Source: Podarcis cretensis (lineage: Eukaryota). Taken from it: a stretch of DNA of 64,000 bases. The stretch lies in assembly GCA_951804945.1 (NCBI GenBank), contig OX638158.1, positions 48,174,001 to 48,238,000 on the forward strand, in the 5' to 3' direction. The position numbers and the translations under genes were made by a program. Below are positions 15,201 through 64,000 of this stretch, piece after piece; within the stretch, counting starts at the first letter, position 1, and each line of letters starts with the position of its first letter. The notes under the pieces are model-generated. The model was not told the DNA's origin. It was given only the letters and a program-made list of their open reading frames with translations, and searched no databases.

Positions 15201-17360
15201 TGAGTAGAACTTAGTTGGATACAACCAAAGTTCTCTCTTACTTGGTGTAGGAGTCCGCAGTAAAGACCCACATCCAATTATGTGCTTCAAACTGCATTAC
15301 AAAGACAGTTTGAACTTGAATGAGTAAATGTTCATCATAGTTCCCTGTTGTGTGCAAAAATCTGATTGGCTTCCTAACTGATGATGCTGAAACTCTTAAA
15401 ATTTAAAAAGCAATTTCATCCTGACCTCACGTTATGATTTACAAGGAATTTTTTGCACATTTTCAAAAATCCTATAGTCACTCCTCATTCTTATGGGATA
15501 CTGATTCCAACAATACTACTGAGAGGATGAATATAGTCAGAATTTTTTTCCTGAGGTTTCATAAAATTATTCAATGTAGAAATGTTTGTGTTCGATGAAT
15601 CTTTTAAAAAAATAATCATAAAGTTTCCTTGTGTATCCTGAAAGTACTGTTTTAAGTGTTCTAGATCTAAGTTTAAGCTACATCTTTTAGATAAAGTGAA
15701 AAATAACACGTTTGCCACAAAGACTACATTTTCCCATTACTGCTCTAACTTGTGTCCTCAATTTATTTTTTCATCATATCTTCTTTAAACAGGCCACCCT
15801 ACCTTACAGCTTTCTAAGTTTCAGGTGTTTTTTTAAACAAAGAAACTCACTGGAGCTCAGCATACAGCACCAAAGATATTAAATAAAGATAAATGTGTTT
15901 TATTATATAAGCTTTTCAAATTAACGTATTCCTGTCTTTTCATGATTTAGCCATACAAAGTTTGAAAAAAATAAGAAATCCAACACCTAACTAATAAAGC
16001 ATACAACACAGAGAAGATGTTGCTCACAATACTAAGTACTGAACAACGAACCTTTACAAGTAAAGAACCTATTGTTTTCCAATCTATAGCTCAGTATATA
16101 TTCATTTCAGCAAGGGCAAACACTAGTTTAATTAAGGAGCTTTTATATAGTGATCATACAAGTTTGTGTTTCATACTAGTATTAAAAATCCTTTAAGATA
16201 TTTTACCCACAGTTCTTTCGCTAATTATTTTTAATTTTGTCATCTAATAATAGTGGAATTTGGGTAAATTGAGTTATATCCAACATGAATCATACTCAAA
16301 AGTAGGTCCTCCTAAATCAATGGGCTGAAGTCCATTGATTTTAATGAATCTACTCTGAGCAGGACTAATGCTGGATGTCACTATTTCACTTTACTTTTTA
16401 TCCTAAGGTTTTAAAACATGGAGATATTAGAATTAATGAAATATTAGGTGCTTCTAAACTTAATTAAATATTAGTTAAATGGTATACTGGAGGGAAAACA
16501 AACTAGTTAGACAGCTATGCACTTACCTGGTAATGTCCCATTATAAATTGGACTCTTGAGTAGACATGTGTAGATTTGCACTGTTAATTCTAAAGCTGAA
16601 GACTATAGCATCTGTCATTAGGAAGGCATGTGATGTTATGTATTATTCTTACAAAATAGTAGGTATTGATATCATTGTCTTATTTAATGTAACTACTGTT
16701 TTTTAGTATTTTTATATGCAGTGCAGAATAAATGCACAGTCGTTAAAATTTATGAAAACCTCATAAATGGTGTTTTATTGATGTCATTTCCATAACCAGA
16801 ATTCAAACAGTAATTGCCACTCATTATATCCCAAACTCATCAGCCCAGCAACACAATCTAAACATATGTCCTTGCTGGTGTAATACAAGTATCAAAATTT
16901 CACTATAAATATGTAAGTGCCCATCTAAAGATTTAAAGAGATTTGTCGTATGAGATGCTGTCTATTCAGCACATGCAATATGTACAATAAATTTTAGCTT
17001 TCCACGGATATGTAATAAATAACAACAGGCATTTTCTTTAACCAAACTAATAATCTGAATAGAACAGTATCTGTCAGGACTCACTAAGGAATACAACATG
17101 CAAAACTGACGTAAATACTGTGCATTTCAAAATTCAGACATTTCCTGAGGAAATAAAAAACTGTAAAATGCAACATTTCAGTTGTGCGAAGCCAAGCTCT
17201 GCAAAGCCATATACTGAGAGGCATTAAACACACACAGAGAAACGGCAAAGGCAAGCTTGGTTCTGTTGCCACCCCTCCTTCCGTATGCAAGTAATCCCTG
17301 GGAAAACAAAGGGGATTCCCATTGTCATTGTCTTCATCTGCAGCTGATCATCACCAGCAC

Positions 17361-17444
17361 TAGCAAGGCAGTAGCTTGCGCAGTTATCTCCACAGCGGGC
17401 AATGTCATAACCCGACCAACAGCACAAACTACTACCTCAGCCAG
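17361..17444 (-). ncRNA. MIRLET7I: pre-let-7i microRNA hairpin (5p 17418-17439, 3p 17362-17383)
   Basis: Reverse complement contains UGAGGUAGUAGUUUGUGCUGUU (let-7i-5p) and CUGCGCAAGCUACUGCCUUGCU (3p). Loop GGUCGGGUUAUGACAUUGCCCGCUGUGGAGAUAA carries the LIN28 GGAG motif. Syntenic between MON2 and PPM1H. Confidence 0.98.
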
Positions 17445-17549
17445 GGGCATGGTGCTCCCGACCCCATCCTGGAAGGAGAGAATAAAGGCGGGCATGTTCC
17501 ACCCACAATAAAATGAAGAGCCCAGAGAGAGAGAGAGGAAGGAAGGAGC

Positions 17550-18950
17550 CATGGCAAAAGGGTCCGGGCTCTTTCTGACGGTCCTCTTGTCTCCTTTATC
17601 TGCAGCAGACATCAGCCAGACTCCCTTCTTCGCGAAGGGCAGGAGGAAACCCCGCCCAGAGCGCGCATTACAACGCCGCCGCCGCCAACCCCCCACCTAC
17701 CCCGCCGCCGCCACCACCCGCTCTGCCCTTTTCCTTGCATGACCTGAAACTGACGCGAGGGAGTCTCGTTTATTAGGTACATTACAGGCCACAGCTGGTG
17801 CAGTCCCCAGGAGCTTAATTGTCAATCGGCGCGAGAAGGGAAAGCGAAGGCGCGGGAGGGGAGGAGGAACAAGGGGGAACAAAACTGAGGAGAAAATTCG
17901 CGCTCCCATATTCCCTGACACTCACTCGCTTTCGCCTCAGCTTTAGAGCATCGTTCCGCGGCGGAGAGAGAAGCAGGGACCGGTGCCCTCCCCCCTCCCC
18001 TCTCAAAATTCGAACATGACCGTTGCAAGCTCTCTCTCCCCCCCTCCCCAGCCAACCGCCCGAACGCGCGCGCGCCGGCCCCCCGAGGGAATAAAAGGCG
18101 GTGAGGCGCTTGACGAGGCGCCATTCCTGGCGGCTGAGGGCACACGATGGCGCTTGCCGCCTCACGCGCCGCCGCCGCCGCCAAGCGGATAGACGAAGGC
18201 GGGAGAGGAGAAAGGAAGAACACGGTTTTTTTCGGTCCCTTCCTTTAAGGGCAGCAGTTAAATTCTGCTCCTCTGACGGCGGCGAAAGCATCTTCCTCTC
18301 CGCGCCGCCTTCCCCACCCCCCGCGCTGTATCGCAGTGACAGACGCCGCCGCCGCGCTCCCGCCCTTTCCGAGGCTCCGCCGATTTCCCTTTCTCCGGAA
18401 GGATGAGAAAAGCCCCCCCCCCACTTCCCTCCGCCTATTGCTCGTCTCCTTCTTGGCGCGCCTGGCCACCCAAACCATAAAGATGGGGGAAGGGGGGGAG
18501 GGAGCGCGAGTACTCACGCTCTGTCCACGTGACTAGTAGGCCTGGCCTGTCCCATAGCCTTCCAGCGCCATCTTGAACAAGAACAGACCGGCAACGGAGC
18601 CGGGTTGCGGGGAGTGGGATGGGAGGTCGGTGCTCTCGACCTTCTCTGCTGCGGCCCCCGAGGAAAAGACGGCACTGGTCAATTAACCCCCTCGGGCAAA
18701 CAGGAACTCGCTTTAAAGCCCTTGCCTCAAGGAATGCTGGGAAATGGGATGTGTTTCCCCCCTCCCTTTTCTTCGCGTGAGGAGGAAGAGCAAATCTCGG
18801 CGCGAAAATATTGAGGGGTGTGGGCACCTGACGACCAGTCTCGCGCTCCGAGCGAAGTGTGCTGGGAAATGTAGTCCAGGACAAGCTAGGCCTAGCCGGG
18901 GAATCGAGTAAAATTTGCGTTCGCCAGGCGTTAAGTTGCCTATCGAGCTG
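17550..18950. promoter_or_regulatory. CpG island: pri-let-7i promoter, probably bidirectional
   Basis: Sharp GC/CpG enrichment with (GCC)n runs; E-box CACGTG 18526-18531; YY1 CGCCATCTTG 18566-18575; ZNF143-type CTGGGAAATGTAGTCC 18862-18877; directly upstream of let-7i on the minus strand. Confidence 0.85.
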
Positions 18951-19414
18951 CAAAGGGGCACAACAGATAAAAGGCGAAAAATACTGTTTCATACGGCTAA
19001 AATCCTAAAAATAAGCCACGCTAACCATAACGGGACTTTGAATAATCATGCAGCACCATACTGTAATTTAACCCACTGTAATATATATAATCTGTTAATC
19101 ACCTGCAGTGTCATGGACAAAGGTCGTCGTCGTTTTGAAATGCATTTAAACTCGTGTTTTGCTGTAAATAATTTCTAGGCGTTCTAAGCAGGCGACATGC
19201 AAAACGATAAGAAGTTAAAATGTATCACCCATATTCAAATGGTACGTGGAAAGATTTTAAAGGGAAACTAGTGTCTACATGTCTACTCAGGGGTAAGCCT
19301 CATTGAACTGACTAGGATTTATAACGTAAGATAAGCATTGGCTTACAGCCTATATCACAAAAAAAGTTGTAGGTGATCTTACCACCTCATTACCACCACC
19401 ATTAATACAGATAG

Positions 19415-19747
19415 GTAAAGGTAAAGGGACCCCTGACCATTAGTTCCAGTCGTGGCCGACTCTGGGGTTGCGGCGCTCATCTCGCTTTACTGGCCGAGGG
19501 AGCCGGCGTACACGTGGCCAGCATGACTAAGCCACTTCTGGCGAACCAGAGCAACGCACGGAAACGCCGTTTACCTTCCCACCGGAGCGGTACCTATTTA
19601 TCTATTGACGTGCTTTCGAACTGCTAGGTTGGCAGGAGCAGGGACCGAGCAACGGGAGCTCACCCCGTCGTGGGGATTCGAACCGCTGACCTTCTGATTG
19701 GCAAGTCCTAGGCTCTGTGGTTTAACCCACAGCCCCACCCTAGTCCC
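19415..19747 (-). mobile_element. Sauria SINE with both ends and TSD
   Basis: A/B boxes (GGTTCGAATCC), (ACCTTT)n tail, 14-bp TSD ATTAATACAGATAG at 19401 and 19748; short internal deletions relative to the 35115 copy. Confidence 0.92.
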
Positions 19748-21189
19748 ATTAATACAGATAGAGGCCAATTAATCAAAACTTAAGCAGTGCACGATATGCA
19801 AAAAAAAAAAGCAAAAGAAATGAAATAAAACTTAACAACTAAATTATTTATCTGGCTAGACTTGCTGAAATAAAGTTTTTAGCAGGCACCCACAACAATA
19901 TAGTGGGAACAACAATGCTTGGTGCTGTAACCGAAAGCCTCCCCAGAAGAGCTTAACACTAGCCCACGTGGCACAATGTGTTTCCACCAAAAGCTGAAGT
20001 AAGGCTTTAAAGCTAAAAACTTGAACACGTTAGCAGCTAGCACCAAGATTCAAAAGTTGTTTTACTATATTTTGTGCTGTCCATGCATGCTTCAGTAGCT
20101 GTCTTTAAAGTTACAGGCAGAAAAGTGAACTTATACTCAAAGCGCATAAATGACAAAACCAAGATCTATACAAGGAGTATGCAGATTATTTACAAGGTTT
20201 ACTGATATGGTAAGAGGCTGTGGATCGACAGAATCCCAAGCTTTCCTGTTTTGAACAGGAAGTAGAGCTGGGGAGGGGAAAATTATTACAAAAGCAGTCT
20301 TAAGTGGCTAAATTAAAAAGCAGGAAATTCATTCCTCAAAGGATGCATGAACTGACACTTCCTCTACCTCGGTTTCTCCCTCTCACATCTGACAGACTGC
20401 TCTGCTAAACATTCTAAAGGCCAACATATAATGTACCTTTTCACACATTTAGATTAAACATCATAAATTCAGGGCAGATTGTGTGGTAAACTGAAATCAA
20501 TCTGAAACATATCTATACACTATATGGGGGACTTACCCATGTAAGTAATTAGAGTTAGCCTTACATTACTATGAGAAAATACCAATTGTAATAACCAATT
20601 CAAAGCAAATTTTCTATTTATGCCTGACATTTTCTAAACAAAAGAACATACAGACTGGTTGCAAACTATAAAAAAGTTAATTTACCACTAAATCAAGATA
20701 TCATTAATTCAAATCATTGGCTCATATTGCTTCCTGGAGCAGGTAAGCATCAGAAAGACTATTGTTCTATAACACAGAAAGAAAATGTCAAGCTATCTGG
20801 CTGGCAAATAAGTGTCATAAGTTGAGAGCACATTGCAGAGTTTATGGTATGAGCTCATTGGGCGATTCTGGTGAAATACAAGATGGCATGTCCTGGAGGT
20901 AGTAGGAATAGTGTCTCTTTCCCAATCTTTGTATCAAGCTTGCAACATATACAGCACATGATCCACTGTAACAGTCAAGATGACTTCAAAAGGAAACAGA
21001 GCTTGGCATATCTTCCTTCCCAGAGGGTAGCAACCTTTAACTCAATGTCTGCAATCCTGGGCACACATAATTGAAAGTAAGCACTAATGGTGGATAGGAT
21101 AGGATTCAGCTAAATATCTTTCGGCTTGTAAGTGCAGACTTTACCATGTTCATTTGTACTACATTCAGAACACTTAAGATATATATTTA

Positions 21190-22832: not shown

Positions 22833-22996
22833 TCAGGACTCTCCATTCTGTACCTTGGATGCTGGTGGGTGCATAAAGTCCTTAAAGGGAACTAAAGCTT
22901 CTTTGAGAGCAGAACAGACCTCTGAAGATGAGCAGGTGATACATTCTACTAAAGTTGGATACAAAGCAATAACCTGTGCCCATGTGTTAGCATCAA
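22833..22996 (-). CDS. MON2: MON2 last coding exon
   Basis: [54 protein letters not shown]; acceptor ttttacag. Confidence 0.95.
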
Positions 22997-35100: not shown

Positions 35101-38100
35101 CATGATATTTATTAAAGGTAATAGTAAAGGGACCCCTGACCATTAGGTCCAGTCGTGGCCGACTCTGGGGTTGCAGTGCTCATCTTACTTTATTGGCCGA
35201 GGGAGCCGACGTACAGCTTCTGGGTCATGTGGCCAGCATGACTAAGCTGCTTCTGGAGAACCAGAGCAGCGCATGGAAACGCCGTTTACCTTCCCGCCGG
35301 TGTAGTACCTATTTATCTACTTGCACTTTGACGTGCTTTCGAACTGCTAGGTTGGCAGGAGCAGGGACTGAGCAATGGGAGCTCACTCCGTCATGGGGAT
35401 TCGAACCACCAGCCTTCTGATCAGCAAGTCCTAGGCTCTGTGGTTTAACCCACAGTGCCACCTGCGTCCCCCCATGATATTTATTACTGTGAGCTTATTC
35501 CTATAAGTAGGCATTTTTCTTTGTCTCTGTGTCCTCTATATTTATTACTTGAAATAACTTTCCAACCCCCTCACACCGCAATGCAAACATAAATACGATG
35601 TGTTCTATGCACATTGAGTGGAATAAGTGGCACCACAGTGAGGCTGCAGAATGGTTGCTGCATTTAGCATGATACTCTTTCCTTCTTCATATGAGTATGG
35701 CTAATTCTTTATCAAAAGGCTGCTGGTGGCTCTGTCTTGACTTCCAAGGGATCCTCTGTGTAAAGGGAGCCTTAAAGCTTATGGCTGAAAGTATCAGCTG
35801 CTGATTCTTAACCCATAAGCCACCTGTACCTCTCACATAATCAACTTTGGCATTTTCTTTAAAATATCATACACAATTATTCTTGGTTCACTGCAATTCT
35901 GTATGAATGTCTGATTCAACAACTTTATGAAGATGACCTAACTGCAAATGTAATCTGCTGAAGTCACGTTTGAACAGGAAAAAACCTGCAGCAAGCAGAA
36001 AAGACAGGCCTGGAAGAAGCTCTCAAGGAGCAAAAGTACCTTATAAAACTATTACCGTTGCCAATTATATCTACCAATATTTAACCAATTCACATTATAG
36101 ATGGCAATATGAAGTTGCGTGTCTGCCTTTCAGAAAGAATTTAAAAACTACATTATTACCTTTTGTAAGACATCTAAAGCTGTTAGAACCGCTTCTTGCA
36201 AACTTGTTAGAACTGCCTCCGTGTATGATGGTAGGATGAAAGGGGATGCATCTGAACTGATTGGAACAGAAACTGCACCATGTAGAATAACACCCAATTT
36301 TTGGAGATCATCCATACTGAAACCTGTTTTGATGTGCTGGTAAAGGGCTGGGAATATCTGTATTAAAGCTGTTAGAAAAGGCTGGCTGGGGATAAAAGTC
36401 ATTTTATCGCAAGAAACTGGAGGCTTTGTGCTTTCTGAGCCAATCCTAAACCAGCTGTTCCAGGCAGCCCACCAAAGATTCAAGTCTTCAATTTCATCTG
36501 TTATTACAGGAGGTTCTGCAACATTATACCTTCCAATCCTTTCTCCTATAGAATCAGTTCTCATAAAAGATCTTCCAAGGCCAGTGGCAGTCACTGTTCC
36601 TATGAGGACAGGCACAGGCATATTAATAGCAGGTGGTGTGTCAGGTTTTTCAGTTTCTCTAACAGGGGACACAATTTGTAAGATTTCCTGAAAGCTTTTC
36701 AAAGCAGCCAGAGAAACTTCGTTGTTTTTGCTGAGTGCAGCTGACTGGATGTGATCAAGGAGGACATCCCAAGCTTGAGAAAAATCTCCTGTTGGGGAAA
36801 AAGAAGTTTCAGAAAGTGGTCCATTTCATTATCATGCCCCCCCCTTCTCCTTTTTAAAAGTGACTTTTAGTAAGTGGCATAATTATGACGATACATCGTA
36901 AGAAAAAAGCTCAGCAGGAGAAATCAGAGGATAGGTTTGCTATATAACCAAGAACACACTGTTACAAGGCAGCATTTATGATCTGTGGTTACAGAATATG
37001 GAGTATATTATTTGCACTTACTGCTTTTCTTTTTTTTACAAAATGTAACTCAAAGTGACTTACAAAAATAGCACATTCGAAAAAACTAAAGCAGAGTAAA
37101 AGCTAAAAATGCTTTCGTATTTATAAAAAGGCAGGACTAGGAGGCCAGATAAGGCCAGGCAGCAGAGGGTGTGTTGTAACCTGTTCTGAGATTATTTTAT
37201 GATGCATGGTGGGATACAAATCTTAATAAATAAAAAAAAATCAACCTATAACTGTGGGATCTTCCCCATCCCAAGTAAAATATATTCACTGGCCATAAAC
37301 ATGCAAAGAAGACATTATACCTAAGGACTGTAGAAGGTATCTCCTTGTGTTAAATATTCTAGCTACTCCAGCCAACGTTAACACCCATGTTTCAGCCCAC
37401 TGTTTCTCTGCTGTATCTCTTGAATGGTGAATGAGGATATTGCCACCACCAGACTCAATCTTCTCTTTATCAGCCGTTGTAGACGACTCCCTCACTCGAT
37501 CCAGCAAATGAAACAGAACCTATAAAACAAAGCATTCCAGAACTTAATAGTCTAGCCGTTTCTTGCAACTGAAGCTTACAAAATAATAAACAAAAATGTG
37601 GGCCTCAGGCGAAGTATGTGAAAGATTCCAGTTTACTTAACTTTACCAACACCAACATTTTAAGCCTATAGATGTTTGCTCAGAAGTATCAGTATATTTC
37701 AACACCATGTTCACCTGGAAGTTCACAACCACACTTAAAATAGTCTGCACTGACAAGCACTCCACTATGTTTTCTCAAAAAGTATTTGCTGCAACATGCC
37801 TGACACTGACTGCAATGGGAGTTCATAAAGGTGTGTTCCAATATCAGTGACTTTGTAGAAAATGTGGAAGCACATCTTTCAAAAACTGCACAGCTTCCAT
37901 CTTAGCTAAGATGCACATGAAGCAGAATGTCATGAATGTTAAGATAAGAGAGACAGAAAGGAAAAATAGATTATGCATGAGAAGGAAGTTGTACATCTAT
38001 AAGGCAAATTATTAAGAAGCCCATGTTGCAGTTTAAAGTACCGTATTTTTCGCTCTATAACACGCACCTGACCATAACACGCACATCGTTTTTAGAGGAG

Positions 38101-41100
38101 GAAAACAAGGGAAAAAACATTCTGAATGAAACAGTGGATGTATCATTTTTGGGCTTCATGCTGTGGCCACAGACATGTGATCTGATGGTGAATTTGGGGT
38201 GACCCAATGCAAAAATCCTGAGAATTCCTGTGGATCCATGCTTTGTAACCACGTTTTTGCACCATTGCAGCCCCAGGCAACAGTGGGTGCGTGATTTTTT
38301 TGGTGCAGGCTGTAGCCATGGACATGCTATGTGATTTGATGGTGAATTTGGGGTGACCCAATGCAAAGATCCTGAGAATCCCTGTGGATCCATGCTTTGT
38401 AACCACATTTTTGCACTATTGCAGCCCCAGGCAACAGTGGGTGCGTGATTTTTTTGGTGCAGGCTGTAGCCATGGACATGCTATGTGATCTGATGGTGAA
38501 TTTGTGGTGACCCAGTGCAAAGATCCTGAGAATCCCTGTGGATCCATGCTTTGTAACCACATTTTTGCACCATTGCAGCCCCAGGCAACAGTGGGTGCGT
38601 GATTTTTTTGGTGCAGGCTGTAGCCATGGTCATGCTATGTGATCTGATGGTGAATTTGGGGTGACCCAATGCAAAGATCCTGAGGATCCATGTGGATCTA
38701 TGCTTTGTAACCACATTTTAAGTGGGGAGCGAAGGAAAAACAAATAAGGGACATGAGAGGGGTGTGCAGAGAAGCAGCTGGCTAAGAATGCAGGAGAGGG
38801 ATTTAACGGGAGGGAGGAAAGAAAGGCAAAAGTTTCCCCCCACCCAAGCCAGCCATCTCTCTCTCTCTCTCTCTCTCCCCCTCCCTCCCTCCCCCCTCTC
38901 TCTCCCTCCCCCCCCTCCCCCCCTCTCTCACTTCCCCCCTCTCTCTCCCTCTCCCCCAGCAGCACCCGAGCACAGAGAGGAATTCCCCTCTGCTTGCCTG
39001 GAGGGGAGGGGCTTTCCCTGCTCTTTGTTCCGTTTCAGCAAACACAGCAACGAAACAGAGGAGGGTGAGCAGTAAGACCCTGAGGCAGAATGCAGGAAAG
39101 CAGTCACTTCCTCTTTTCAGTTTTCCCTTCTCCGTGAAGTGCCGCGATTTGATTTTTGCCTGATTTTTCGGCTCCAGGGACCACACATTCACTCTATAAC
39201 ACGTACAGACATTTCCCCTTCCTTTTTAGGAGAAAAAATCTGTGTGTTATAGAGGGAACAATACGGTAGGTTATATGTCTGTAAAGGCTAAAACCCACTG
39301 AATTACTTGGCAAAAGCTGGCAGAAAGTCAAAAAAATGGATTGGACACTAAGGACCAATAGAGAATAGGGCGATTTCCTCTTGCAGTAAATTATACATTG
39401 TAGCCAAGATAATCGAAACTGAAAAACAAGAATACCAAACACACATAAATACAACTAGGATAAGACACAGTTGTGATATTACTGTTTTAAGATGCATGAT
39501 TTTCGTATTGTACCTTCCAAATAACTGTGTGCCACGTTGAGTGCTGAAGTAAAGTTCCATGAGCACCAATTGTAGAGAATAAGGTCTGCCCAGCACTCTT
39601 TCTCACAGCAGGCCGTGGATCTACACAGAGCTCCCCCAGTTTGGCATACAGACACAGCCAAAGGCAGTCAAAGGGTGGCGCTGGGTGAAAAGGACGGTTC
39701 AGTGCTATTCCTTTTTCTTCTGCTTGCTTCTGTAGCAATGCTTCCTCTTTGTTCAGATCTTTTTCAATAATTTCACCTCTTTGGAAGAAATAGTCTGAAA
39801 TGTTCCACTGCAAAAACAAAGAATGCATCTTCATAAATTATATTTACAGAGCACAGAGAAGGGTGGCAACCATCCTGTTGAACTAATTACCCTAAAAATT
39901 GTGCCAAGCTCCATGCTAGTACTAGTTTTGCTGGCTAGTTTTCACATTTTTATGCAGGAAGGTTTTGAGAAGTATTGCTGGAGTGCTAAATTGAGTTCCC
40001 TTTTAAATGGGTTTTTATAGTAGCTGGTTTTAAATACTACTTTAAACAGTGGGGTTGTCTTAATTCTTTGATGCTGCTTTGGGTTTCATTTAAAAAAAAT
40101 AAAGGAACAAGTGTAAATGAATGAATGAATGAATGAATGCATCCAGCAGCAAGGGGTTACAGCTAAGAACATATTCTGGTTGACCTGTGAATTATAATCC
40201 TGAACAAGCAATAAATAAAAGACTGGGCTACAATTTCAATCCTGCTGCACACTTAACGATAAACCATATTTTATTTGGGACAAAATAATACTCAAAGTAT
40301 GTCATGCTGATGCTCCTCTTACTCATTTCTGGCAAGAAGGTCTTAGAACAGTTGTGCTCATTATTAATTTATACAGGACAGAACCTGTTACTTGAAATAC
40401 TTTAGTTTTCCAAAGAAAAACTTAGCTTTCACCTCAATGGACTCAGCTTTTCCTACCGGGTGCCTGATTCTAACTAATAAGCACAATCCAGAGAAAGTAG
40501 AACTGGCTTAAATTACACCAAAAGTCAATGGAACTTGACACTTAACTCTCCCTTGAAAGCTGTGTCCAATCAGTTCAAAAAATCTCAACACCATAGAATA
40601 TGTTTTCTGGAACTTGCACACCAACTCCTTCTATTTTGTATCAATGAATCAGGAATTGTATTTCTCAATATCTGAAATATAAAAACCTGGCAGCTGCCGT
40701 TTGTTAAGGAGTTGTAGCTCTGACGGGGTAAACTACAATTCCCAGGATTCTTTTTTTTGGGGGGGGGAATGCACTTTAAATGTATGGTGTGTGTATGCAG
40801 TCCAAGTCTTAGAGAGCAGTCCTTTGCACATTTACTTAAAAGTCAATCTCTCTGTTAAATTAGGCGAAATAATGCTAAACATTAGAGTAAAGGTTCACAG
40901 CTAGGGATTAAACTAAACACTCACCAAGAGACCAATTGATGTTAAGCTAATGTTGAGTTCTTGATTGTGAAGCCCAAAGCTTCCAGCAACATCTACAACA
41001 ATCTGTAGGCAAGTACATGGCATCGTTGGCAAGAAGTCAGTCACAACCAACTGTAGGCACTGGAATGCAGTCCTTATTAGAGACTCTCTATTAACAAAGC

Positions 41101-44100
41101 AAAACAAAATTTTCTAGGTTTATCAAATGGTCATAAAATATCATAATACCAAACAGACGATTACGCAGTTGATAGATTCAACTAGATACGTGGTAGCTCT
41201 GCATCAGTCAAACTCTTTGTGCTTAGCTGCTTACTATACAGACCTGTCCATTTTTAACATGCTCAAGGAAGCCAATCCCCTCCACCAAATTATGGGACGT
41301 GGGTGGCACTGTGGTCTAAACCACTGAACCTCTTGGGTTTGCAGATGGGAAGGTCAACAGTTCGAATCCCCATGACAGGGTGAGCTCCCATTGCTCTGTC
41401 CCAGCTTCTGCCAACCTAGCAGTTCGAAAGCACACCAGTGCAAGTAGATAAATAAATACTGCTGTGGTGGGAAGGTAAACGGCATTTCTGTGTGCTCTGG
41501 CTTCCATCACGGTGTTCCGTTGTTCCAGAAGTGGTTTAGTCATGCTAGCCCCATGACCGGAAAGCTGTCTGTGGACAAACGCCAGCTCACTCAGCTTGAA
41601 GCAAGATGAGCGCCGCACTGGATAGTCATCTTTGATTGGCCTTAACGGTCCAGGGGTCCTTTACCTTTTACCACCAAGTTGTATGGAACTGGCAAGTCTA
41701 CACATTAATGGCTTGTCACATGTAATACCACCATTCTCTTCGACTTTCATATGACCATCATGCAATGTCTTGTATGTGTGGCATAGGTCATTCACTTTAC
41801 AGAAGCAAAAACAAACCGCAATGCACTAAATACATTTAAGGCTTATATTTGAGATTATTAGCTAAAAGGTTATAAAGTTTGGGTGAAAATAAGCAGCTTT
41901 TCTTTTCATATAAACACTAGGTGCAAAAAGATGAAGCTTAGAGGACATCAGAATATTTAATTTTTTTAGTAAATTGCTAGAGCGACAAAAAACTTGTTAC
42001 CCTAGGAATGAGGTTACTATATTTTGCACAATAATTTGGTGCAATAATTATATAAAAAAATAAGACTACGGACCAGTACCACAAAGTGACCTAAAAAACG
42101 GAAGCAGCAATGAAGATTAGCAAACGTTTGCATCTTGGCTTCAAGAAACTCACCCCTGATCACTTCTGATTGCTCCCATGACTCCAAGTACCAAGGGCCA
42201 CCCAGGCCCTAGACTGTCACCCTGGCTTTGCAAAATCTGTAGCACACATTCCAGTTGCTTGAGCCTAATATCAGGGTGATTGATGTTTGACAGTTCTTTC
42301 AGTGGATTTAGAAGCAGCAACTGAAGTCTCTAGAAATAAAAGGGAAGCAGAGACTGAACTTTAGTTACGAAAGCATCTTGAAGCTAAACAGCATCATACA
42401 CAGAAGTGACAAGCTCAGTGGGGAGGCAGGGACCTATTGAACACCAGTGGCAGCTGCGGAGGGTCAGAAAGCGAAACACTGAAATTCTACATCAGGTGGT
42501 CTCCAGCCTAAATCCAGCCTAGGCTGCCTCAACTCAAAAGATCCTGGCCAGCAGCTACTTTTCTTGCATATCATCGCTAGAAGTGTAGCTGCAGCCAGAT
42601 CTATGCCAAAAGGTTTAGAAGAGAGGAGAAAAGAGTGGGAAAATGTAATTGCCTAGTAGCCACCAGCTGTCTGTGTCTCCTGCTGCTTACTCATATACAG
42701 TGAAAAGTCCACACAAGATGCCTGGGTTATTGCCTCATCGTTACTCGACCTGATTCCCCTAATACCCCACAACCTCCATTCTGCAATAAAGCCTCCTGTT
42801 TATTGTAGTGCTGAATCTTGTAAAAAATAGTGAGCAGAACAAAGAAACAGAAACAGAAGCAACCCTACAACCTCCAGGTTGGGATACTGTTCTGGTATCT
42901 ACCTAGCTAGGTATGAAGCTGCTGTAACAAAATACTGGGGTTCCAGTTCTACACTGACTAACTTAGGAGTAAGCCCCTTAGGTCTGAATCAGCACACATA
43001 GAACAGCACTGCTATTTAGCCCAACAAGCAGCCACTTCTACTGGCTGGAAGATCAGCCTTGACTCCTACAAGTCAGCTATGTAGGATGGGAAATTCCAGA
43101 AGCACAGACATTCCAGCTATATATTCATTACGTAGCTAACAATGCACAGAACTGTGGAAAATAACTTCTGATTCTTATTGACAATTAATATAAATTACAC
43201 GGCGACTGCTTGCTATGGAGCATAATTTCCAGAATATTTTTTTATTTCCTGGAGCGTTATTTTACCTGGTTCTGAGAAAGTGAAGGATCATGGTTAAATG
43301 TCAGCCCAGCCTTGATGAGAGACGTTAAAGCTTCTGCTCCCCATTCCCTCATCCGTGAGTTTGGATGTTGGCAAACCTAAATATACAATATAGCTTTCTT
43401 TATTCAAGCCAGAATGCACATTAATAAACATTCAACATTAATAATAGGTTTTCAACCTATGCATTCTTTTAAAATACTGATAACCATAAGCTGATCTGGT
43501 ACATATATACAACAATTGCTGTGTTATTATATTAATAGTAATTTCTGCGGCCCTTTCAACATGCATGGTGCTTTGTCATTCTTATCTCATGTGGCTTCTG
43601 AAAATAGGAAATACAAGATACATATTTCTTATTTGACTAATAATTAATTCTAGGTTTAGATGTTTTGTATCTTAATAAATTCTCTATCCAATTCCAATGA
43701 TATATGTGATTGCAGATTTACCAACTGTGTAAGCTGGCCCTAAGCTACAAATGAGTCATTCTACATATATCAAAATCTCTCTTTGCAGCTCAGTCTTTTT
43801 CCTTATGAGGTTTTACAATATGATCTATTACCATCAAACAGCAAAATGAAAGGATTCACTCATTAGCACAAAGTCAAACAGTAAATAAGGTAGACAAACT
43901 TGCAAGAAAAACTTACCTTCTGCATAAAAAGAGGGAGGAAGCAGTAGGGAAGAAGTAAAAAAATATGAAACCAAGACAGCCAGCAATAATCTTTAATATA
44001 TCATCACTGAGCTTTACACCATAAACAGTTTTAATACAGAGATACGGTGTTTCCAAAGTGTGTCCTGTGTGATTGGAATGGTTCTGTAATATTGTAAAAT

Positions 44101-47100
44101 AGATGTTGAGAACTGATCTATTTCTCCAAGGGGAAAAAGCCTTATTGTTTGTCAAGCCTCTAAAACAAAACCACTTTTATGATGCCTATCAATCCTAAAA
44201 ATGTGAAAAAGTTCATTTGCTAATCCTGTGTGAAAAAGAGATATACACTGCATGTTAAAAAGAGATACTGCAGAAATTTCCCCAAATCCATACATACATT
44301 TCCCTCCTTGCTACAGAGCCACGGCTGGGTGGCGGCGGGGTGTGTGTGTGTCCCAGGAATGTGGGACTCCATGTCTCTTTATCTGGTCACCTGGGCTCTC
44401 CCCTAGGCCAGGCATTCACCCCAGGCCACATCTCTCCCTGGTTCTATTTCCACGCCCTCCTTCTGCTTGACTGACTGCTATGAAAATAAATCTTGCTGCC
44501 TGGATAGCAGCAGGAGTGTAGGTGTGGGGGTGTACGCACACACTCTACATCTGACTTTCGTGGGGCTGGAATGTAGTCTAGTGTATAAAGGTAAGAGTCA
44601 CATCCTTTGATCCACCCACTTTTGCCTCTGGCCCCGCCCTCCATGCATAGAGTTAAACCTCGGTTGTCGAACGTAATCCATTCTGGAAGACTGTTCGACG
44701 TCCGAAATGTCCGACAACTGAGGATTCAAAGGGTGGTCAGCAAAGTCAATGGAGAGAAAGGGGGGGGGGGCTGTAAGCTGTTTGGCTTCCAAAAAACATT
44801 CGAAAATAAGAGAATTTACTTCCAGGTTTTCGGCGTTCAGGAGCCGAAAAATTCAAAAACGGAGCCGTTCAGGAACCGAGGTTTGACTGTATGTGGTTCT
44901 CCAGAAAAACGCCCATGTGAGAATGCAGTCTTTGGGCTGAAAAACCCCATTGTGGAGAATCACCACCTGTCAGATCATCTCGGATTTATATTTTTTTCAC
45001 CCATTAGAATATAAAACCTTACATTCTATAAATTCCATAAAACACCCTTATTACTTATCAAGTTACAGAGATCTCTGTAATAAAAAAAGGAAAGCTCCAC
45101 GAATAAACTTAGAAGAAAGGATGTTGGTCAGTCCTATAGAACAGGGATGTCCAACAGGTTGATTGCGATTGCACTGCCAGTTTTTAATTCTGAAAGTAGA
45201 TCGCAGTCTCTTGAGAGTTGGCCTCCCCTGCTATGGAATTTAAATCCAAAACTGCATTTTCCAGTAGGATCCAGTTTGAAATTAAGATATGAGAATTTTG
45301 TGAGTTTTGAGACAAAACTTTTTCATTCAATTCAGTATAAATGGTAGCACAAGTCCTTCCATTGTAGCCAGTGAAACTCATTGTGTTTCTATTTTATATA
45401 TACATTTGTTATCTACAACCAAATTTTTATTGACAACTTAAAAAGACTACATTTTACACAGACTGCAAATGTCTATGCATTTTTCTGTTAAGGTAATCCT
45501 AGCATTTTAGCCAGCCATGTAATAACTAGAACAGACAACTACTTTATCCTAACTGTATAAAGAGCAATATTCCTATGTATCATCAGGATGCTTCTTTCAC
45601 TAATTTGCAATTATGAAATAGCTTCTGACAAGTGATTCCCATAAGTGTTTCTATAGGATGGGATTACACATATGTGCACTTAAATCCATATATGACAAAC
45701 CATTCACAAGCAGTTAAATAAGACTAATATTTGACTTATGAACAGACATGTGTATCATTTCTTCCCAGGTGATGACTATACTAGCACATGTGACTTATTT
45801 GAAATAACTATGGTATGCATGAGAACATTGCAACTATGTAATGGAGTTTATCATGTGGATCCTTTCCAACCTAATCACCATCCTACCAGGAGGTAAAGTA
45901 CTCAGGCACACACACAGCCTTGTACCAAAAGTCCTTAAGACAGCTCAATATTAGATATATCAGAGGAAGTCAACAACAAAGAGTCCTCTTTAATAGAGGT
46001 AAATGAATTCCGCCCCCCTGCTTCCAAGCTTCCAGCATTCTTTGCATGGACATTCTCTTTACAGTAAATGATATTATGGGAAACTCCTAAGCAGAATTGG
46101 TTACCAGGAAGAGTAGCTCCAGTCTCCATAGATGGCAAGGATACAATAAGAGGTGCCTTTTCATTTGAGATTATTAAAATCAGTTTGACAGCACCATCTC
46201 ACTTACCTAGAATTAAGTCCAACTGAACACACTGGTACTACATCTAAGTAAACATACACAGGATTGAACTGTAAGTATTACCGTATTTTTTGCCCTATAG
46301 GACGCACTTTTTCCCCTCCAAAAATGAAGGGGAAATGTGTGTGCGTCCTATGGGGCGAATGCAGGCTTTCGTGCACCGACCCCTCTCGCTCTCCAGGCTT
46401 CAGGAGAGCCCCACCGCCAGCCCCACAAGCTCAGGGGACAGCGGGGAGGAGGAACGCCACCATCCCGCTGTCCCCCGACCTGGTTTGGAGGCTGGCGGCG
46501 GGGAGAAGCCTGCTCCTCCCCGCCGCCAGCCTTCAAACCAGGTCGGGGGACAGCGGGATGGCGCGCTGCGCCTCTCCTGCTGTTCCCTGAGCCTGCTTCT
46601 CCCAACCGCCAGCCCCACAAGCTCGGGGGACAGCTTCCCGCCCCAGCCCCATGGCGGGGGGGGGGGGGGGGGAATAAATTTTTTTCTTTATTTCTCCCCC
46701 CAAAAAACTAGGTGCGTCCTATGGGCCGGTGCGCCTTATAGGGCGAAAAATACGGTATGTTCCTCCGTCTACATTTTGTAATATTTTCTAAGATACTACA
46801 CCTTTATTTCTGCCTTTGCAGATGTATGCCTTTAAGTATGATATGTCAACTTGCCTGGGCTCTGCTTTTCAACATCATCAAAACAGCTTGATTTAATAAG
46901 AAGTTATAGAACCCACACTTAAATAGTGTTGAGGGGAAAACAATGCAAATTCTATAAGAAACAAAAAATAATCTAGAAACAGAATAGAAAATAAGATGAA
47001 ATTAAAAACCAATGTATTGGCTTTAAAAAAAAAAAAACCCTTACGTTTTTAAGTTTTAATACCACAGAGGAAAAATACAAAGGTTCACCTAATGGTTATA

Positions 47101-50100
47101 AAAATATTGTTTACCTCTAGGAGATGGCCAGTCAGTGGTCTCCATAAAATTTCAATCCTATGCATGTTAACTAGTCCTGTTTCGAGCAACTTAGCAACAG
47201 CAAACAGTGATGGCTCCTAAGCATAAACAGAATTCAAAACAGTCACTTGACTTAACAACCTATTGCATTATATTTTTCCATTTAAAGTATTTATACTCTG
47301 CATTTCTACTTCCTTAAAACAGCTTATTTTCTGAGTTAGTTCCTAATGCTAATCTTTCTATTTGCTGGGTCAGCACATTTTAATATTTAAACTTTAAATA
47401 AACAATTGCATTAGTGTACCTTCCTGTGAAGCTCACATATCATGTTGTTATAATGCCCTAAATTCAGTAGTAGAATCATTAGCACAATTCATTCTATATG
47501 ATGCTGACTTAACAAATAATATATTGCACTGCAAGAAATTTAAAAACCAAAGCTAGGAGTTAGTTAATTTATAAAGCATGTCTGAAAAGCAGAATAAAAT
47601 ATACCATACCTTATTATTTCCATAGGCCATGTCCATCGCTTCCAGCGACAAGGAGCAAAGTGCATTTATTAAATGATGTAATGAAACATCATCTAGGTAC
47701 CTGTGGGAAGGATCAATTATTAGAACTATTGCCAAAAGGGATTAGAAACAAACATTGTGATCTAAAAGTCAGTTTTCTTACTGTGAGCTTTCAAATAGCC
47801 TGGAAAGTATGTTGGAGATCACTGGTAAGTCAGTCATAACAGCTGTAGTTAGAACCTGAAAGGATACAATTAAATTATGTAAGCAAATGCATAACATAAA
47901 AATACAATGTGATTTATTCTGCTACACAGTAAAGAAATTCTTACGGTGCTGGGTCCTTCCACAGCTCTTCCAGGCTTCAAAGCACCTCCAACGCCAGGCT
48001 TTAAACCAAGAATCCATACAAGATGCTGAAATGAAAAACACATTTTTAAACTTAAGTGCTTGCATAAAGGTCCACGTTAAACATTAAATAAGTTTAAAAC
48101 AATCTATGGTTTTATGTGAATGAGCAGAATGTGCTGCACACTTCACTACATTTCTGCAGTGCTTCTCTTTTGCATTTTGCCATGCTGCACATGAAACAAG
48201 CCAAAGTTTGACTTGTTGTATTGTCCAAACTCAGGCTTGTGCTTTGTTTGAAAAGAAACAAACCACAATTCCAGGTCTGGGAACGTAAGAGGAGCATGCA
48301 CCAACACACTTCTCATTTACATTAAACAATTGTTTTTTTGTTTTAAACTATGGGTTAGTGTGACATTCAAACTAGGCCATAAAAAATACTTTTCAAGGTT
48401 TGCACTTCTGTGACCAAGGACAGATCCACATCATACATTTCAAGCATATCCTATACACATTTAAAGCACATTACTCCCCCCAAGGAATCCTGAGGGATAA
48501 AGTTTGTTAAGGGTGCTGGCAATTGTAGCTCTGTGAGGATGAGAGTACAGTTCTCAGGATTCTTTGGTGGAAGTCGTGTGCTTTAAATGTGTGTGGGGTG
48601 TGCTTTAAATGTCTGGTGTGGATCTGCCCAAAGTGTATTACATGCTAATATTTCAACTTTAAAAATTCTGCTTGAATCCTCCAGCTGTTCTGTGGATGGT
48701 TTTTTTCCAGCTCGACTACGGTACTTGGCTACCTTCATTACAGTTGTGGGTACATTTCAGTTAGTCACAGAAAGGTAAGGGAAGCAAAAAGCTCATTAGC
48801 TGCCCTGCTGACCATGTTCATGTAAAGCTACAAAAATCGCCATGCTTTAATTACAAAAGGTTTGAAAAACACAATTGTGTGGGGCTGACTTGCTTCATGG
48901 AAAGAGTTTCACTCAAAGAGAATATCCACCCAAGAAGTTAAAACAAAATGCAAGTCAAGAAAGGTAAATCAAGCATTAACCATTACTCACCTGGAGTGTA
49001 GCTAACACAAGTTGCCAGGATGTACCAAGGACAGCTCCATGACAATGAGCCAAGCTAAGTAATGTCCTCATGCACTGTATATTCTTAGAAGTAAGCTAGG
49101 AGAGCATTTAAACAGTTAGAATTTTCGAAGTAGAGAAAATAATAGCATTTGTGAAAAAAATGGTAATAGCAAACACAATGATGGAAACCCTGCAATCCGT
49201 TCTTTTATTTTCCCCCTCTATCTAGACCTACATGTATGTGATGAATTTACATTGGAGTTAAATTACAGCAGCTAAATGACACTGGAAGAACCTAGCCATT
49301 TTAATTCATTCAAACCTCTTAATCCTTCTATTTCAACAAGCAAATCATTATGATAGCCAGTTTGTCCTGCTATTTTCTACTCGTCAAGTGAAAATGGGGC
49401 AGAAAAAGAAGATCCTCCTTTCCAACGGGAAACATGCAGTTCAGGATACAAAAGAATGTGTTGAAGTAAAACCTGCATATACTCAGTGAAATTCTTGGCA
49501 TCCTTTATTTATTTATTTATTTGAGGTTTTACTTCAAGTTTTAAAATTTACTAGACAGGTGACTGATATTGTGAAACAGAAACAGCTATTGTTTGAAGAA
49601 AAAAAATTTGCACAGCCTTTCCTCAGCATGGTCCCACTGACTTCAATGGATGCAGAACTCTGGGTTATAAGCAAACATTTGCCACTCAATATACACAGAG
49701 AATGCAAATTGTACACTGCATTTGTTGCCCTGTTATTGTGAATTTTAGTACAAGGCTGGTCTTTTGAAACTTTGAGTCTGTTGAAAAGAGCTTTTATTCT
49801 GGCTGACAGATTCATCTACGTACACAGGATATCAAAGAAAAATATTGTTAACTTTAAGGAATTATTTCTAGAAATCTGAAACATCCTTACAGTGCAGAAA
49901 TCATGTTTATATTTGCAACTAGTAAATTAAAACAACCTCAATCTTAACCTAGCACCACAAATTCACTGTGTATCTCCTATAAGCTCATGCATGTTTTACT
50001 ATATCTACCTGTATTATCCCATTAATAGTAGAACATGGTCTTTCAAGATTTTAGGAATGAAACAGCAATCTCCTTCTCAATTTGGTCATATTGAGAGTAG

Positions 50101-63682: not shown

Positions 63683-64000
63683 CTTGGGAACAAAAATTGA
63701 GATGGGCTATTCGATGCCAAGATACTATGTGGGGGGAAATGACTATAGAAGTGTCAATCATTAATTCCATCGTACTTAATAAATATTGAATATGCTTTTT
63801 CACCCTGTAAAGATTTGCAGGGGATCGCCTCAAGCAATATGTTCTCTTCTTTGACTGACCTTTTAAGATGGCCCCAATCCACCTCTACTGGAAGCAGGGC
63901 TGCAACTCACTCTGCCTACCCAAGAAAGAGGTGGGGAAGGGAAAAGCTGCTACCACCTGGGAATAACAAAGCACTTTTGAAACTACTGAGCTTAAATAGC

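Follow-up and report, generated by a model that had tools for sequence, protein, structure and literature searches.

We describe a 3-nt exon, AAG, within an intron of the MON2 gene of the lizard Podarcis cretensis. We are highly confident that it is a conserved cassette exon adding one lysine (K) to the protein, that most lizard tissues likely skip it, and that its inclusion is likely neuronal under the control of SRRM3/4. RefSeq already has the exon in its protein models for Podarcis muralis and for other amniotes; this lizard copy of a catalogued SRRM4-responsive MON2 microexon is real but ordinary, with little weight as a discovery.

The microexon and its splice signals

The window analyzed here is a 64,000-nt stretch of P. 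cretensis DNA, and MON2 lies mostly within it on the minus strand. A P. muralis MON2 protein was mapped onto the window exon by exon using tblastn; the match runs from residue 99, at position 63691, to the C-terminal end at 22836. Over the length that aligns, the large exon (36151-36822) and P. muralis MON2 are 100% identical. Pfam searches of the P. muralis protein returned PF16213, PF12783, PF09324 and PF16206, with the DCB, HUS, HDS and Mon2_C domains all present. The microexon, its splice signals and the two flanking exons are located as follows.

47115..47216, minus strand: upstream MON2 exon, 102 nt, ending ...GHLLE, with donor GAG/GTAAAC (tblastn of the P. muralis protein)
43922..43990, minus strand: AG exclusion zone, 69 nt, with polypyrimidine tract (sequence)
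43941..43943, minus strand: UGC motif at -24..-22, predicted SRRM3/4 response element (sequence; role based on the main text of 10.1101/2024.09.17.613571)
43920..43924, minus strand: microexon 3' splice site tgcag (sequence)
43917..43919, minus strand: 3-nt microexon AAG (sequence; +K P. muralis RefSeq proteins XP_028603630.1, XP_028603632.1 and XP_028603633.1)
43911..43916, minus strand: microexon 5' splice site gtaagt, consensus AAG/GTAAGT (sequence)
43266..43376, minus strand: downstream MON2 exon, 111 nt, starting VCQH... (tblastn; skip junction in lizard contig sets X1, X8 and X15)

The host intron (47114-43377) is 3738 nt long, lies in phase 0 between ...GHLLE and VCQH... and is divided by the microexon into parts of 3195 and 540 nt. 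On the minus strand, the context of the microexon reads ...cttccctactgcttcctccctctttttatgcag/AAG/gtaagt. The inclusion junction is CTCCTAGAG-AAG-GTTTGCCAA, and the skip junction is CTCCTAGAG-GTTTGCCAA. Splicing the exon in gives HLLE-K-VCQH with the frame kept, which confirmed both the phase-0 intron and the change from HLLE-VCQH to HLLE-K-VCQH put forward in the original prediction. The added residue is Lys824 of the 1739-aa Podarcis isoform.

The splice signals that had been described were also found in place. The AG-free, pyrimidine-rich zone, estimated at ~70 nt, measures 69 nt (43990-43922), UGC occupies 43941-43943 of the minus strand (-24..-22), and ugcag/AAG/guaagu is present, its AAG at 43919-43917, with the perfect donor claimed for it, the only perfect MAG/GTAAGT donor among the 414 AG-N3-GT sites on both strands of the window. 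The nearest AG upstream of the acceptor is at -73, and a gap at least as long as that of the microexon's AG-free zone precedes 1.0% of the 4136 minus-strand AGs in the window. The pyrimidine fraction of the 29 nt before the acceptor is 0.86. Further TGCs occur at -66 and inside the acceptor tgcag itself (-5), and CTAC at -28 and TTTAC at -40 are weak candidates for the branch motif.

A chance filter (YAG-N3-GTRAG, AG gap of at least 40, pyrimidine fraction of at least 0.7), which was fixed after the site was known and is thus indicative only, matched the microexon alone on the minus strand of the window and nothing on the plus strand. In 100 order-2 Markov simulations, this post hoc filter yielded a mean of 0.02 matches per strand, with a match in 2/100. 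The microexon region is single-copy in its own genome. In a comparison with contigs of close lizards, which is too shallow to carry weight, 43892-43933 and the UGC were free of listed changes, and four fell in 43934-43981.

Several other elements were noted in and around the gene. The host intron carries a 477-bp repeat insertion (46279-46755) that is missing in the contigs of sets X1, X5 and X10 and has many copies elsewhere in those runs; it is likely a mobile-element insertion that is polymorphic between lizard lineages. Another MON2 intron contains repeated units of ~85-90 nt (38055-38717) followed by a GA/CT-rich simple repeat (38757-39068), with repetitive open frames. A 54-nt in-frame exon flanked by ag/gt at 33782-33729 (minus strand) occurs in 10/10 Podarcis cluster members and in no other fetched homolog, is missing from one further P. 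muralis model (P0001), and is possibly a lacertid-specific alternative exon. Downstream of MON2, just past the GC-rich interval 18001-20000, lies a let-7 precursor that is presumably let-7i by synteny. It occupies 17359-17445 (minus strand) and scores 67.1 bits with Rfam RF00027.

Lysine-containing proteins and lizard transcripts

Of the 761 homologs, the best 120 comprise 16 with K at the junction, 90 without it and 14 in which the pattern is unmatched. With cluster members added, 195 amniote homologs were fetched, of which 32 are +K, 147 are without K and 16 lack the junction. The residue inserted between HLLE and VCQH is K in 32/32 carriers, and these often occur in isoform pairs with K as the sole difference. 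Carriers include Sphaerodactylus (gecko), Crotalus and Pseudonaja (snakes), Chrysemys (turtle), Strigops (parrot) and, among mammals, several carnivores, bats, Jaculus (jerboa), Capra (goat) and Elephantulus (elephant shrew). By these +K proteins, the exon is conserved across amniotes, from lizards and snakes to a turtle, a bird and mammals, and the mammalian +K isoform mentioned in the original prediction is borne out by annotated proteins. No +K protein from fish, amphibian or human was present among the 195 fetched homologs.

Within the Podarcis cluster, three of 10 members carry K, namely isoforms X1, X3 and X4 of P. muralis MON2 (XP_028603630.1, XP_028603632.1 and XP_028603633.1), and these read HLLE-K-VCQH as in the window. 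Later P. muralis models (XP_077790808-10, XP_028603631.2) are without K, as are the P. raffonei and P. lilfordi models. The expectation that standard annotation usually misses such exons therefore holds for these latter models and fails for the three that include the lysine. In the Podarcis isoforms P0122, P0126 and P0129, the part ahead of the microexon is two residues shorter, so that the junction falls at 822 and not at 824; this suggests a 6-nt alternative splice site upstream of it.

Transcript evidence was sought in eight of 22 listed runs, none of them recorded as RNA; the eight are assembled contig sets of unknown tissue, in which minor isoforms are lost. Among the matches listed, the skip form was found in 3/8 sets (X1, with a joint skipping 3738 nt, and X8 and X15, whose loose ends match the upstream exon), and there was no AAG inclusion junction, which weighs little against inclusion in the lizard. 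A contig of X5 ends at exactly 43915, that is, after AAG plus GT. Its reading as use of the microexon donor was set aside, given that X6 and X8 from the same study run through this position.

Regulation of the exon and alternative explanations

A 3-nt MON2 exon has been catalogued in mammals as the vast-tools events HsaEX0039778 (human) and MmuEX0029412 (mouse). The human position, chr12:62544766-62544768, is one that we take to be in hg38 coordinates. In the supplement of PMC7935315, HsaEX0039778 is listed there as a 3-nt exon whose PSI in HEK293 is 0 with GFP and 95.9 with SRRM4, whose PSI in day-50 neurons is 78.9 versus 7.65 in progenitors, and whose PSI is 0 with mutant SRRM4 versus 31.9-80.0 with wild type in 8/8 cell-line sheets. 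For MmuEX0029412, also 3 nt, the supplement of PMC4387716 gives a PSI of 76-85 for cortex and hippocampus of wild-type mice and of 58-76 for those lacking Srrm4 (mean change -14.9, p 0.0115). A loss of 15 PSI on knockout is modest, and SRRM4 alone thus does not explain inclusion. The SRRM3/4-dependent neural signature that had been assigned to the lizard exon is thus matched by SRRM4 dependence and neural inclusion in the human and mouse supplements (PMC7935315, PMC4387716), provided that the exons are orthologous.

We infer this orthology from the gene, the length, the human order upstream of an 18-nt exon, and the single K at the junction in mammalian proteins. Both mammalian events share with the lizard exon a location in MON2, a length of 3 nt and preservation of the frame; HsaEX0039778 lies upstream of the 18-nt HsaEX0039780, in the same order as the lizard exons, and mammalian MON2 proteins also have a K at this junction. 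They differ from the lizard exon in species only, and the inclusion level and tissue pattern are human and mouse measurements. In the window, the 18-nt microexon (IQLFAP, 32110-32093, minus strand) has a 66-nt AG gap and an upstream UGC. Like the 3-nt exon of the same gene, HsaEX0039780 is raised by SRRM4, from PSI 57.5 to 98.0 in the supplement of PMC7935315, but it is a separate exon whose inclusion already stands near one half in non-neural tissue. A zebrafish mon2 mutant described in the available text of PMC12626420 deletes the 18-nt exon and not the 3-nt one, and hence says nothing on the latter. The mouse Mon2 microexon is called a well-characterized SRRM4 target in the available text of PMC13174390, where its length is not given, so either exon may be meant.

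The lizard exon resembles the SRRM3/4-dependent neural microexons (3-27 nt) in its length, its preserved frame, the UGC before the acceptor, the long AG exclusion zone, the strong donor and its location in a vesicle-transport gene, and it stands at the minimum length of that class. It falls within 3-27 nt with canonical AG/GT, it preserves the frame between coding exons with annotated +K/-K pairs, and it combines a UGC near the 3' splice site, in an AG-free pyrimidine tract, with a strong 5' splice site. According to the main text of 10.1101/2024.09.17.613571, which does not mention MON2, 74-79% of dependent microexons carry a UGC between the branch point and the AG, this UGC is not strictly required, the 5' splice site is strongly influential, and regulation is largely conserved in orthologous minigenes. 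No mon2 row was found in the supplements of PMC12626424 and PMC13281805. The P. cretensis genome contains two SRRM_C (PF15230) loci above the Pfam cut-off, which would fit SRRM3 and SRRM4.

In the mechanism that we propose, the exon would be too short for ordinary exon definition, and the flanking exons would be joined by default, giving the skip form seen in lizard contigs. As mammalian work suggests, SRRM3/4 would act at the UGC in the long AG-free pyrimidine tract, and the consensus donor would help SRRM3/4 commit the tiny exon.

Since this intron alone holds 20 AG-N3-GT sites, we weighed against this mechanism the possibility that the site is a chance motif of AT-rich intron sequence and that the +K proteins stem from an alternative splice site or from faulty annotation. 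Its probability is negligible. The microexon is the sole site of the form AG/NNN/GT in the intron that codes for K, and a 3-nt shift at the flanking splice sites was ruled out as the source of K because the donor GTAAAC and the acceptor ...ATTTAG cannot give AAG. The identity of the inserted residue (K in 32/32 insertions) and the PSI data for the 3-nt MON2 exon in the supplements of PMC7935315 and PMC4387716 likewise stand against it, and together these findings effectively refute this reading.

It is very unlikely that the exon is real in mammals and silent, or nearly so, in this lizard, with the RefSeq +K models produced by homolog projection or rare reads. Such silence would agree with the lack of an inclusion joint in the eight contig sets of unknown tissue and with the 7/10 Podarcis models without K, including all later ones, but the splice signals are all intact and extreme for the window, +K models also exist in a gecko, two snake genera, a turtle and a parrot, and SRRM_C loci are present in the genome. 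We also see a slim chance that the lizard exon is included in a manner that is neither neural nor SRRM3/4-dependent, for example in muscle or broadly. Against this, seven human cell lines have a PSI of 0 without induction, and the value increases with wild-type and not mutant SRRM4 (PMC7935315 supplement); the largely conserved regulation of orthologous minigenes (main text of 10.1101/2024.09.17.613571) points in the same direction. On the other side, the lizard contigs are of unknown tissue, and a UGC is not diagnostic at the 74-79% of dependent microexons given in that main text. A conserved, probably neuronal cassette exon under SRRM3/4 remains our preferred reading.

Predicted consequence of the lysine

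The spacing between a conserved W and an H position that bracket the site was compared in distant homologs. It is 13, as in the skip form, in 103 of the 106 that cover the site (150 returned), and 14 in the other three. On this basis, the skip form is probably of the ancestral length. A phmmer alignment to Sec7 (8UCQ) pairs K with R without a local gap; the ancestral status of the +K form that this might imply was rejected, as the W-to-H spacing in Sec7 is 13.

AlphaFold2 models the skip form of residues 734-985 as a solenoid made up entirely of helices (pLDDT 95.4). The junction lies in the final turn of fragment helix 74-92, and the best structural match of this model is Sec7 8UCQ (E 6.8e-06). 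In the +K model (pLDDT 95.6), the helix still spans 74-92, and the following loop is one residue longer. The alignment behind the +K model consists mostly of skip-length homologs and leans to that fold, so that the model indicates tolerance of the lysine, not its effect. The lysine is thus predicted to join the final turn of a HEAT-like helix, making the loop that follows one residue longer and leaving the fold unchanged.

The microexon site lies ~30 residues ahead of the Pfam HDS domain (853-931). In the available text of PMC6642134, Dopey1 binding and dimerization of MON2 are assigned to 1458-1718, and the smallest phosphatidic acid-binding fragment is 1-1035; the lysine is therefore unlikely to act directly on Dopey binding, and it may affect binding to the membrane or to other partners. 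The frame-preserving lysine would most likely cause a small tuning of such binding. Most of 45 microexons have minimal phenotypes in the available text of PMC12626420, so that a strong effect of the lysine is less likely a priori, and our literature search, which lacked most subscription papers, found no functional study of the 3-nt MON2 exon. We regard with some doubt, as a tentative and rather unlikely proposal, a neuron-specific lysine that acts as a one-residue switch, altering lipid or partner binding by MON2 and thereby retuning neuronal endosome-to-Golgi traffic. This proposal is based on the helix length kept in 103/106 distant homologs and on the position of the site inside the phosphatidic acid-binding region 1-1035.

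The exon serves as a positive control that 3-nt exons can be spotted from raw sequence, and it offers a small annotation fix, as newer Podarcis models omit the microexon. For the biology of MON2, the +K and -K forms provide a clean one-residue comparison with which the role of the lysine may be addressed.
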